Below are positions 48,001-51,000 of a stretch of 64,000 nucleotides of DNA, piece after piece. The DNA comes from Escherichia coli (GTDB lineage: Bacteria > Pseudomonadota > Gammaproteobacteria > Enterobacterales > Enterobacteriaceae): NCBI RefSeq assembly GCF_030013205.1, contig NZ_CP122648.1. The stretch is one strand, 5' to 3'. A program made the position numbers. Numbering within the stretch: the first letter of the stretch is position 1; every line of letters starts with the position of its first letter.

Positions 48001-51000
48001 GAAAAGTGCTTTAAGGCAGTGGCGCTGGCCTGGCACAAAACCAACAAAAAATGGTCGGCTGATTATGCCGCCCGTATTCTCGCCAGTATGGAAAACCATA
48101 TCTTCCCGGCGATTGGTCATCTGCCAGTTGCCACTCTTAAAACGCAGGATTTACTGCTTTGTTGCGGGTTATCGAGGATAAAGGCTTTCTGGAAGTCGCG
48201 TCCCGAACCCGGCAGCAACTCAGCAACATCATGCGCTATGCCGTTCAGCAGGGGCTTACCGAAAGCAATCCGGCGCAGCATCTGGATGGCGTTGTCGCCT
48301 CACCCGTAAAGAATCACTACCCCGCGTTACTGCTGGAGCGGTTGCCCGAACTGCTTGGCCGCATCGGTGACTATCAGCAGGGCCGGGAGTTAACACGGCT
48401 GGCGGTGGTGCTGACGTTGCACCTGTTTATCCGTTCCAGCGAACTGCGTTTCGCCCGCTGGAGCGAGATCGATTTCAGGCACAAAATCTGGACCATCCCC
48501 GCCACCCGCGAGGCAATCGACAAAGTACGGTTTTCGGGGCGTGGCGCAAAAATACGTACCCCGCATATCGTGCCGCTCTCCCGCCAGGCGATTGCCATTC
48601 TGAAACAGATACAGGAGCTTTCCGGCCATCTGGATCTGGTGTTTCCCGGTGATCATAACCCGTACAAGCCAATGAGTGAAAACACCACCAACCGGGCGCT
48701 ACGCCTGATGGGGTATGATACGAAAACTGAAATCTGCGGGCATGGACTCAGGGCGATGGCCTGTAGCGCCCTGGTGGAGTCGGAGCTGTGGTCACGCGAT
48801 ACGGTGGAGCGGCAAATGAGCCACCAGGAGCGTAACAGCGTGCGGGCAGCCTATGTGCATAAAGCGGAGCATCTGGAGGCCAGAAAGGCCATGATGCAGT
48901 GGTGGTCGGATTATCTGGATGTGTGCCGCGAGGGGTATGTTGCGCCGTACATTTATGCCCGGCAGCATAAGGCAGCCTGAATCAGAAATAACGGAAATCA
49001 TTAAAAATGTAAAAGCAGATCCTGATTGACCGGGATCTGCTTATTGTATTGAGAAGTATTACCATTTTTCTGTTATTATCAATCGGAAAGTATCTAAAAA
49101 TATTTGGCCCCAAATAATTTTGGTGAAAACCAATCAATAAACCATTTATCAATAGGTAAGTACCGGAAATTATTCCAGTAGAATATTTTCAGGCGATTGC
49201 CTATTAATAAATACATTATTGATAGATAAGTGCCTTCTGTGATTTGTCCGCAAATCACAGAAGATGAAAACCTATCAATACGGGATATTTTCACGGAAAT
49301 ACCAATTAATACTCCAGAATATCTCCTGACCATATACTCTGAAACCTGTAAGAACTGCATCAGATATTGAGAGACCATATAGATATAAGTCTGAAATTAT
49401 TTTGTTTCCAATGATTTCAGGCGAAAACCTATCAATGCATCTGTTTTCAATAGGCAGCCACCTTCCGTGATTAACATGTTAATCACGGAAGGTGAAAAGC
49501 TATCAATAATCGATATTTTCACGGAATTACCACTTAATACATCCCAAAAAATGCGCCATAAAATACCGGGCAATCTTTCCTGATACACATTATCACTGCA
49601 CCAGCTATACAGAGACAAAATAATCTGCACCAGCCCCTGTAAATCGGTTATTTGTGCCAGTGTCCCGCCGCTCTACCTGTTCAGGGTTGTGCCAGTTTCT
49701 GGCCCTTTGGTTTTCGGCCCTTTCCGGTCAGGCGCTGTTACCCTTATTGCCCCTTAACCTTTATGACCCTTTCCCTTTCTGACGCAACCAGTTTATTTTG
49801 AAATGCTCCATGACAGTCTGCACCAGACTGTATTTTCACCACAGGATAACGATCACAAAGTGCAAAAAAATAACATGAAGCACCAAAGATTGTTAATCTA
49901 TATGTAGCAGGTAATGATGTCAAAAACTGTCGCAGCATTTTTTATAAAATTATGAGACATTCTGTGGGCATATAATATATGTCACAAGATGCAGGAAAAC
50001 AAAGAGAGAGTTTTCAGATATAATCCTGCGTTAGAATTAATGTGATGCCCCGGTGAATTTACATTTTAAAATTTCCCTGTCCCGTAATATCGGTAAAAAC
50101 GATTGAAACACCAGCTATTAATCGGGAACGTCTCGAGTGATTACAGGGTAATCACTATAATATCCCGGCAAACTATATTGGTTAAGCAGGAGAATCTGAT
50201 CAGTTGATATTTATTCGTCATGCTGTAACGATATTTTCACAATATAAACCCGTTCGCCCCCTGCGCCAGATCCGGTACAGAGGGTACGATAAATCGCTGT
50301 CGTTACGCAGTAACGTACTATTTTGCGACATTCATGAATTCAGTCATTCCTCCCTCCAGCGGTAGCCGTACACCTGTTTCACCCAGCGACCGCGACCGTC
50401 GCCATGACCCAGATCCGTCGCCGTCAGCGCCAGTGACTCCTTTTCGCTGAATCCCTGCGCCAGTATCCAGGACTGTCGTATAACGGGGACGCCCGCCTTT
50501 GGTGCCAAATACCACTTTTAGCCGGGTTTCACCGCGGGAAATGGCTTTCAGCCACGTTTTCAGCGACTGTGAACTCTGTACCGCCTCCTGCGAACGCAGC
50601 CCCATCAGCCGCGCAATCTCCAGCGCTGCTGCCAGCCCTGCGTCCTGAGTACGGGCTTTCTCCATCACCTGCCTGCGTCCAGCCTGTCTCAGCACGGCCC
50701 GCAACGCTGCCATTTCGTTTTGCAACGTTCGTAAACCAATATCCAGCTCCAGCCGTTCCTCAATGTAGCATTCGATATGGCGAACCTTGATCTGCTCCAC
50801 CCGCTGGATCTGGATATTCAGCGCCCGTAAATGTTCACTGAACCGTTTTGTAATATGGATACGGTCATTCACCGTTTTGAAGCTGCCGCCCGCTTTCTTC
50901 GCCAGCGCCTTCATTTCACTGCTTAATTTACTCATGAATCCCTCTGCAACAAAAACAAACAGTCTCCGGCGTGTGCTTTTTGGCTGCGCCAGAACGATAC

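Follow-up and report, generated by a model that had tools for sequence, protein, structure and literature searches.

Two described relaxase genes are followed directly by a single-strand DNA signal. In ICEBs1, the single-strand origin sso1 is located immediately 3' of the relaxase gene nicK and is orientation-specific (PMC4595007), while pIGRK carries a single-strand initiation signal (ssi) just 3' of mobK, which codes for a tyrosine-recombinase-like relaxase (PMC8152469). PF12835 is the signature used for another atypical tyrosine-recombinase-like relaxase, MpsA of Salmonella genomic island 1 (SGI1) (PMC10484663), and an essential small RNA, sgm-sRNA, has its gene between the SGI1 origin of transfer (oriT) and mpsA (PMC9299015). 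MOB_M relaxases, which are tyrosine-recombinase-like, are reported to be the commonest relaxases of enterobacterial chromosomes, and 96% of them to adjoin an integrase (preprint, bioRxiv 10.64898/2026.01.13.699239). Here we describe a spacer of 1.3 kb without annotated genes in a 64-kb stretch of Escherichia coli DNA (the window, to which all coordinates refer unless a locus is named). Its sequence is 100% identical to that of the porcine strain K_EC180. The spacer separates two convergent pseudogenes, a P4-like integrase gene (int) and a PF12835 gene coding for a candidate relaxase, and therefore sits between two 3' ends. A preliminary description of the locus noted a diverged tandem repeat and three palindromes in it. 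These palindromes are the inner stems of bigger composite hairpin units. We tentatively interpret the units as orientation-specific single-stranded DNA (ssDNA) hairpin signals of the ssi/sso type, placed downstream of the relaxase-like gene, and would give this interpretation a probability of about 0.3.

In the window the units form a tandem array with a period of about 70 bp, consisting of four full units, a partial one and a degenerate one:

49071..49146, plus strand: unit u1, inner palindrome degenerate (TATTTGG-CC-CCAAATA, centre 49108.5); covariance model score 77 bits
49140..49215, minus strand: unit u2, GGAAATTATTC-CAGTA-GAATATTTTC, centre 49178; fold z -4.9; 61 bits
49211..49287, plus strand: unit u3 (unit A of the preliminary description); -17.3 kcal/mol, z -6.8; 79 bits
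49379..49432, plus strand: partial, decayed unit (inverted repeat I4); 30 bits
49439..49515, plus strand: unit uB (unit B of the preliminary description), with a perfect 36-bp palindrome at 49459-49494; z -6.6; 71 bits
50108..50184, plus strand: degenerate unit uC, with palindrome C at 50136-50156; z -3.0; missed by the covariance model

The dyad centres at 49108.5, 49178 and 49248.5 are about 70 bp apart, and a further one is found at 49476.5. The two repeat units reported earlier (~160 bp, ~75% identical) do exist, but they cover 131 nt each (49182-49312 and 49410-49540) at 73% identity and are a later 228-bp duplication inside the older 70-bp array. Palindrome A (CTTCTGTGATTTG-TCCG-CAAATCACAGAAG, 49234-49263) was confirmed, with arms of 13 bp. 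It is the 13-bp inner stem of u3, which is separated by an 8x8 internal loop from a 9-bp outer stem (TATTGATAG/CTATCAATA). The perfect 30-bp palindrome of unit B is real, but it is the centre of a longer one: palindrome B is a perfect 36-mer made of CACCTTCCGTGATTAACA and TGTTAATCACGGAAGGTG without a gap. Palindrome C (AGTGATTAC-AGG-GTAATCACT) is present too, one base away from where it had been placed. When the mononucleotides of the spacer were shuffled 300 times, perfect arms reached 6.9 on average and never more than 10, as against the observed 13 and 18, and ssDNA folding of u2, u3 and uB gave z values from -4.5 to -7.6 on either strand. The motif described as recurrent is indeed clustered: CTATCAATA with at most one mismatch has 32 matches in the window (11.9 expected), eight of them within about 380 bp (49131-49508). 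The inner palindromes show an A-tract / stem / T-tract layout.

An alignment was made of twenty units, which come from the asn-type and aspV-type islands of E. coli and from E. albertii and Salmonella; they stack nearly without gaps. The outer stem is conserved in sequence (TATTGATAGG/CCTATCAATA, with CCGATGRATA in some variants). Inside it there is an internal loop, A-rich on both sides of the plus strand, and then a 13-bp inner stem of variable sequence with a terminal loop of 0-5 nt. Across the 20 units 76% of the partner cells are paired, compared to 34-42% when the partners are slid, and the covariation score of 0.346 (0.06-0.12 for slid partners) was reached by none of 500 shuffles. The inner stem alone is 89% paired, with two-sided changes in 11 of its 13 pairs. 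Among its 259 cells there are 231 Watson-Crick pairs, five A·C and not a single G·T, which looks like a constraint at the DNA rather than the RNA level.

The inner palindromes (GTGATTTG, GTGATTAACA, AAATTATTCAC, AAAAATTTTCTAC and others) vary through compensatory changes. Orthologous units have the tips TTTGG-CC-CCAAA in the window, TTCAC-TG-GTGAA in strain AR434 and TTCTAC followed directly by GTAGAA in Salmonella, and the centre of palindrome B is CATG in the window and CGCG in another strain. Since the tips differ yet stay paired, the constraint acts on complementarity itself. Salmonella and Escherichia share the flanking boxes TATTGATAGGAAA and GAAAAC-CNATSRATAA, whereas their inner stems turn over. 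In E. coli AR434 the orthologue of u1 (6086-6139 of locus L002, corresponding to 49083-49135 in the window) is a 54-bp palindrome with perfect 26-bp arms and a 2-nt gap. It spans flanks that are non-complementary in the window; one lineage has thus "perfected" its palindrome. What is constrained in each unit is the structure and not an operator sequence.

Of the roles proposed in the preliminary description, a cis-acting one within the island was retained, with the units acting as structure-specific DNA hairpins and not as sequence-specific operators. Operators are disfavoured because variable sequence with preserved Watson-Crick symmetry leaves no common half-site: the palindromes differ by symmetric compensatory changes, and the stretch is located between convergent 3' ends. 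Arm-type integrase sites were suggested as well, but the main array (49071-49515) lies 1.5-1.9 kb from the attL core and ~8 kb from attR. CTATCAATA-like sites are lacking between the tRNA gene and int, and the one nearest to attR is 823 bp away from it. Nor do the units behave like the remains of a small mobile element, as they are not dispersed and occupy at most four places per genome, always in this spacer.

Several likenesses suggested by the palindromes and boxes were considered and dropped. CRP, LacI-family, ArgR and IHF sites were rejected, judging by sequence, on account of misfits in spacing or consensus and of the mutual differences between the palindromes. A CRISPR-like reading was rejected as well, the variable part being palindromic itself and cas genes being absent. 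A promoter inside the hairpin (Frpo-like) would have TTGATA as a -35-like box, but no consistent -10 box follows at 16-18 bp.

The spacer was found in 519 of the 5,426 complete E. coli genomes and the units in 469 of them (~9%), at 641 places, up to four per genome and none on plasmids. They also occur in E. albertii, E. whittamii and Salmonella. The stretch does recur in other asn-tRNA islands, where the preliminary description had proposed to look for the palindrome. Comparison of the units with 50,697 phage records (blastn) gave no match, and with 72,556 plasmid records a sole match, to a Salmonella copy of the same module. Over 282 kb (the window and the related loci) the covariance model detected no unit outside the spacers between int and the relaxase-like gene, and none in the plasmid loci and tRNA-Phe-type loci searched with it. 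A scan of IMG/VR for unit flanks added one further copy of the same module (locus L023); the three other matches were due to chance. No Rfam family was found in the stretch, where the scan returned only a spurious miRNA at E = 0.28, and a literature search for the motif sequences returned no relevant paper.

Polarity is largely shared. At most sites the covariance model scores the same strand 15-35 bits above the opposite one, and the orientation is nearly uniform on both sides of the conserved spacer core described below. The exception is the u2-type unit, the sole one in the window with its best score on the opposite strand, which behaves in the same way in locus L004. Strains differ by exactly one 70-bp unit. 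Three units follow the PF12835 stop codon directly in loci L021 and L022, where the genes are intact, in the IMG/VR contig and in Salmonella (L008), an arrangement that seems to be the older one. The block of three units spans 4160-4480 of L021, which comes from strain LR-46 (NZ_AP027537); islands with both int and the PF12835 gene intact lie around 1184283-1190000 of NZ_AP027537 and around 4858892 of NZ_CM143728. The window has its main array across the core from the PF12835 gene, past an insertion of ~500 bp, and this array appears to be a later expansion on the integrase side. uC, with its palindrome C, occupies the position of unit "c", which directly adjoins the end of the relaxase-like gene in intact variants.

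The window's PF12835 gene is annotated as "integrase domain-containing", is internally deleted and starts at 50935 (tblastn). Its intact 294-aa orthologue matches Integrase_1 (PF12835, E = 3.9e-59) and Phage_int_SAM_2 (PF12834, E = 2.9e-39). The latter is a SAM-like, core-binding-like N-terminal domain, and the assignment of the protein to MOB_M is provisional. The 16 chromosomal loci examined, at tRNA-Asn, tRNA-Asp or tRNA-Phe, have this gene and a P4-like int in convergent orientation. The module is also present in one Salmonella record labelled as a plasmid and in one IMG/VR contig. Homologues with 33-50% identity are carried by plasmids of Pantoea, Klebsiella, Erwinia, Burkholderia and Thiothrix, some of only 8-22 kb. 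Since PF12835 is the signature of MpsA and MOB_M relaxases are habitually located beside an integrase, the island is best seen as a decayed integrative mobilizable element, in which the PF12835 protein would be the relaxase and the transferred form would be ssDNA.

The ssi/sso interpretation is favoured because the units are a structure-specific and polar DNA element beside a candidate relaxase gene, as in the two precedents. The array is specific to one lineage and belongs to the presumed mobilization end of a tRNA-Asn integrative mobilizable element. Its units would work while the DNA is single-stranded, i.e., during conjugative transfer or rolling-circle replication of the excised island, or after these, where the hairpins would prime or otherwise act on ssDNA. 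As ssi/sso-like signals they could help to turn the transferred strand into a duplex before integration. Like known ssi/sso elements (ssoA-, G4- and phiX-type among them), which are orientation-dependent, keep structure over sequence and are often redundant and dispensable, the units are non-coding, hairpin-forming DNA. They are also found near a relaxase-like gene, on the same 3' side as the ICEBs1 and pIGRK elements, which follow their relaxase genes directly. Unlike them, they form a tandem array of 70-bp units, not one element of 150-200 nt, and have no detectable sequence kinship to plasmids or phages in the collections searched.

A number of observations weigh against such a role. The units are absent from the tRNA-Phe modules and so are not essential to the module. 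Their copy number ranges from 1 to 5 and changes by whole units, and their position shifts across the core. The folding energy is the same on both strands, and the mismatch bias is weak (78 A·C to 45 G·T), in counts that are non-independent across orthologues. No similarity was found to plasmid or phage records or to an Rfam family, ssoA/G4-type consensus sequences not having been searched. The core-binding domain is reportedly missing from the characterised relaxases MpsA, MobK and TcpM (PMC8152469), so the PF12835 protein with its core-binding-like domain could be an ordinary recombinase. Transfer of the island family is itself presumed.

The gene order of the region is tRNA, P4-like int, spacer, PF12835 gene and EFASI motif, and the island is closed by the attachment sites:

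47482-47557: tRNA-Asn gene, the third one, the integration site of the island
47542..47561, plus strand: attL core, located at the tRNA-Asn 3' end; it repeats the attR copy directly and perfectly over 20 bp (CCAGTCAGAGGAGCCAAATT)
47719..48980, plus strand: P4-like tyrosine integrase (NF007246), a frameshifted pseudogene in the window
49013..49042, plus strand: integrase terminator hairpin AAGCAGATCC...GGATCTGCTT, kept at all related loci
49590..49850, no strand assigned: conserved core of the spacer, GC-richer
49895..49923, minus strand: best promoter-like site of the region (TTGACA-17-TAGATT), aimed leftward into the core and the array
50301..50315, plus strand: CGTTACGCAGTAACG hairpin past the stop codon of the relaxase-like gene
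50347..50935, minus strand: PF12835/PF12834 tyrosine-recombinase-like gene, candidate relaxase (MpsA/MOB_M-type), internally deleted
50991..51118, minus strand: EFASI RNA motif (Rfam RF02957), same strand as the relaxase-like gene and ~60 nt upstream of it
51852-52040: Ner/SfsB-like helix-turn-helix (HTH) gene, part of the same conserved module
53020-57012: Rhs protein gene, cargo of the island together with a TPR protein gene
58022..58041, plus strand: attR, a perfect 20-bp repeat (CCAGTCAGAGGAGCCAAATT) closing the 10.5-kb island

The conserved core falls within the interval of the preliminary description but was missed there. It is the sole part of the spacer common to all genera from Erwinia to Escherichia (Enterobacterales); among the E. 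coli genomes, 544 were found to have it. Its elements are five TGYRCCAG boxes in direct orientation (starts at 49597, 49626, 49653, 49688 and 49819), six CCCTT[TA] repeats at 49703-49778 and, at 49731-49746, the block GGCGCTGTTACCCTTA, which 13 of 15 spacers share unchanged and the other two with one base different in each. Single-base indels rule out a coding frame in the core. A small basic peptide encoded after the relaxase-like gene was rejected too, as single-base indels in the CCCTT runs change the reading frame from species to species, and in E. coli every frame contains stops. A conserved RNA structure on the minus strand was rejected as well, none of its eight predicted pairs (-7.4 kcal/mol) being compensatory. 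That the core is a degraded integrase fragment, as overlapping annotations in H60-H62 suggested, is not supported, since it lies past the integrase stop in those loci. It is not bound to the relaxase-like gene alone either, being absent downstream of three plasmid-borne homologues. TGCRCCAG was also considered as an island-wide site; however, its copies in coding regions reflect CTGGCGCA (Leu-Ala-Gln) codons of the coding strand, and only the non-coding spacer copies count.

On the other side of the PF12835 gene, EFASI is located ~60 nt upstream and on the same strand in all 13 chromosomal modules scanned and in the IMG/VR contig. It also precedes three plasmid homologues, with a gap of about 80-125 nt (the loci with EFASI are the window, L002, L006, L008-L020 and L023). 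As EFASI occupies the place that sgm-sRNA has beside the SGI1 oriT, it may be a counterpart of sgm-sRNA or a part of an oriT, i.e., a partner RNA or oriT element of MOB_M-type relaxases. The locus resembles SGI1 (oriT, sgm-sRNA, mpsA, mpsB) in having a PF12835-type gene beside the integrase of a chromosomal island and a structured motif just upstream of this gene on the same strand. It differs from SGI1 in the lack of mpsB, with a core-binding-like domain fused to the PF12835 protein instead, and in its sites, which are tRNA-Asn, tRNA-Asp and tRNA-Phe here and trmE in SGI1. Nothing described in SGI1 corresponds to the hairpin array downstream of the gene or to the CCCTT/TGCRCCAG core.

The main rival explanation, which is serious though we hold it to be doubtful, takes the array for a neutral minisatellite of palindromes, which would fill a convergent gap tolerant of insertions with AT-rich sequence and would be coated by H-NS like other AT-rich horizontally acquired DNA. 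Its size would change by slippage or unequal exchange, and intrastrand template switching (quasi-palindrome correction), rather than selection, would keep or perfect its palindromes. Such an origin agrees with strain differences of exact 70-bp units, with the many decayed units (e.g., u1, the partial unit and uC) and with a GC content of 31-38% against about 55-60% in the flanks. It also fits the pseudogene state of both flanking genes in the window, the tRNA-Phe modules that do without units and the unrelated cargo found in the same gap in Cedecea and Serratia. Perfect 26-bp arms in one lineage next to the degenerate window copy are what templated correction would give. Neutrality does not readily explain why the three-part architecture and its boxes (TATTGATAGGAAA and GAAAAC-CNATSRATAA) persist from Salmonella to Escherichia while the inner stems are replaced, why units on either side of the core have a nearly uniform polarity, or why units are kept beside intact genes. 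The same architecture also recalls the attC sites of integrons, imperfect palindromes of ~60-140 bp in which short conserved boxes stand at the base, the central spacer is unpaired and the stem varies but keeps its pairing, with a polarity and an adjoining tyrosine recombinase gene. The units could accordingly be structure-specific targets of a flanking protein of the tyrosine-recombinase family, either attC-like folded sites or secondary nicking/termination sites for the PF12835 enzyme. Genes of this family are present on both sides, and the spacer does take insertions (the Cedecea cargo with a 23-bp repeat, the E. albertii open reading frame (ORF) with CGTTACGCAGTAACG hairpins and TGCACCAG boxes). 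We regard this as unlikely, since there are no cassettes and no conserved ORFs between units only ~70 bp apart, the observed cargo insertions are not bounded by units, and the oriTs known for MpsA, MobK and TcpM are found upstream and not downstream of the gene. By sequence, the boxes TATTGATAGG ... CCTATCAATA misfit the attC R/L consensus (RYYYAAC/GTTRRRY), and neither an IntI-type integrase nor attI is found here. Among other short non-coding imperfect palindromes that may cluster, the repetitive extragenic palindromes and their mosaics (REP/BIME), the enterobacterial intergenic repeats (ERIC/IRU) and the miniature inverted-repeat transposable elements (MITEs) are scattered over many intergenic sites, whereas our AT-rich units with variable centres are confined to one spacer of one island family, in four or fewer places per genome.

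A role of the double-stranded form seems quite unlikely to us. It would make the outer boxes TATTGATAGG/CCTATCAATA a platform for a regulator or nucleoid protein, e.g., the island's Ner/SfsB-like HTH protein, which would build a nucleoprotein complex or silence the end with int and the relaxase-like gene. Conservation and clustering of the outer boxes, with eight CTATCAATA-like sites in 380 bp, speak for it, as does the presence of the HTH gene in the same conserved module; A-tract-rich, AT-rich DNA is a typical H-NS target. This leaves the perfect complementarity of the variable inner stems unexplained. No promoter of the flanking genes is located here because the genes converge, the HTH gene is also found in modules without units, and the boxes do not fit the full IHF consensus WATCAANNNNTTR. 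Action at the RNA level is distinctly improbable; here the hairpins would serve transcripts as bidirectional terminators or insulators that separate the convergent genes, or would belong to a minus-strand non-coding RNA that starts near 49890. All six promoter-like matches in 48900-51300 are on the minus strand, including TTGACA-17-TAGATT directed into the core and the array, but six such sites are no enrichment over the 4.3 expected by shuffle. The A-tract / stem / T-tract layout would suit terminators, and the A-tract preceding the integrase terminator could also stop minus-strand transcripts; the AT-rich stems were nevertheless not called as terminators. A total lack of G·U-type pairs in 259 inner-stem cells would be unusual for an RNA helix, and no Rfam family matches. 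That the units are small protein-coding genes, with paired ORFs on either strand, is hardly credible. In the window both repeat units are spanned by open frames, 94 and 77 aa long on the minus strand and 46 and 38 aa long on the plus strand, and one RefSeq record annotates a 99-aa hypothetical protein here. Yet these four ORFs and the others across the region (64 aa on the minus strand, 42 and 49 aa on the plus strand) are all broken by stops or frameshifts in orthologues with 86-98% identity, which argues that they are not genes. No NCBIfam family matches them, and the 70-bp copy-number step is not a multiple of 3. The preliminary description was thus right in dismissing the minus-strand ORFs and treating the region as non-coding.

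A broader speculation, to which we give a small chance, unites these parts. The units, the CCCTT/TGCRCCAG core and EFASI could be the cis apparatus of an undescribed mobilization system, whose PF12835 enzyme would read folded ssDNA structure in the way attC sites are read. The spacer would then be a processing and cargo-capture site of widely distributed tRNA islands that carry type VI secretion system (T6SS) and Rhs genes. To our knowledge, almost nothing is described of the cis-acting DNA of MOB_M relaxases beyond the SGI1 oriT. Three conserved non-coding parts are now defined around the PF12835 family: EFASI upstream, the core downstream and the hairpin array of Escherichia/Salmonella. If the units do act as single-strand initiation signals, no integrative mobilizable element of Gram-negatives would have had such signals described before, and an ssi/sso role would help to explain how T6SS/Rhs-carrying islands become established after transfer. 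If they are neutral, they represent a clean natural case in which templated mutation maintains palindromes. In both cases the parts are delimited well enough for deletion tests.

The modules at tRNA-Phe belong to Klebsiella, Serratia, Cedecea, Pseudocitrobacter, Erwinia and S. arizonae, and their spacers, which may be as short as about 210 bp, have no units. Spacers may contain cargo. In Cedecea colo (L014, ~6060-6873; spacer 40-830) about 770 bp with a P-loop ATPase-like ORF are located between the integrase terminator and the first TGCACCAG box. This cargo is flanked by a 23-bp direct repeat GCGG[A/T]TCTGCTTTTTATTTGCAC, suggesting site-specific insertion into the spacer. In E. albertii (L010, spacer 660-1100) an ORF of ~95 aa is inserted beside the relaxase-like gene and bracketed by four CGTTACGCAGTAACG hairpins, of which the window has one copy, and TGCACCAG boxes.

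The aspV islands of E. coli (L006 and L007), located at tRNA-Asp and adjoining a T6SS cluster, have the same spacer and relaxase-like gene, but their int is only 32% identical and is interrupted by IS3. Such a combination of the same end with a very different int shows that this end has been exchanged between islands with different integrases.

On the minus strand of the window, 52552-52737 holds three motifs in succession: C4 antisense RNA, isrK-like RNA and the target motif c4-a1b1. This row is located upstream of a 153-aa ORF (52037-52498) and the Ner/SfsB-like HTH ORF and resembles a P1 immI-like control module. Among the related loci scanned, C4 was found in 11 and isrK in 10.

The STAXI motif, which Rfam links to ssb, topoisomerase, antirestriction and Xer genes, occurs near the PF12835 gene in Salmonella (L008, 632-774 and 6750-6876) and on Klebsiella/Erwinia plasmids (L018, 2660-2817; L019, 2652-2802 and 4440-4588). 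On the Erwinia plasmid one STAXI is located immediately 3' of the PF12835 gene, and after it come small ORFs and a topoisomerase fragment. This layout resembles a conjugative leading region.

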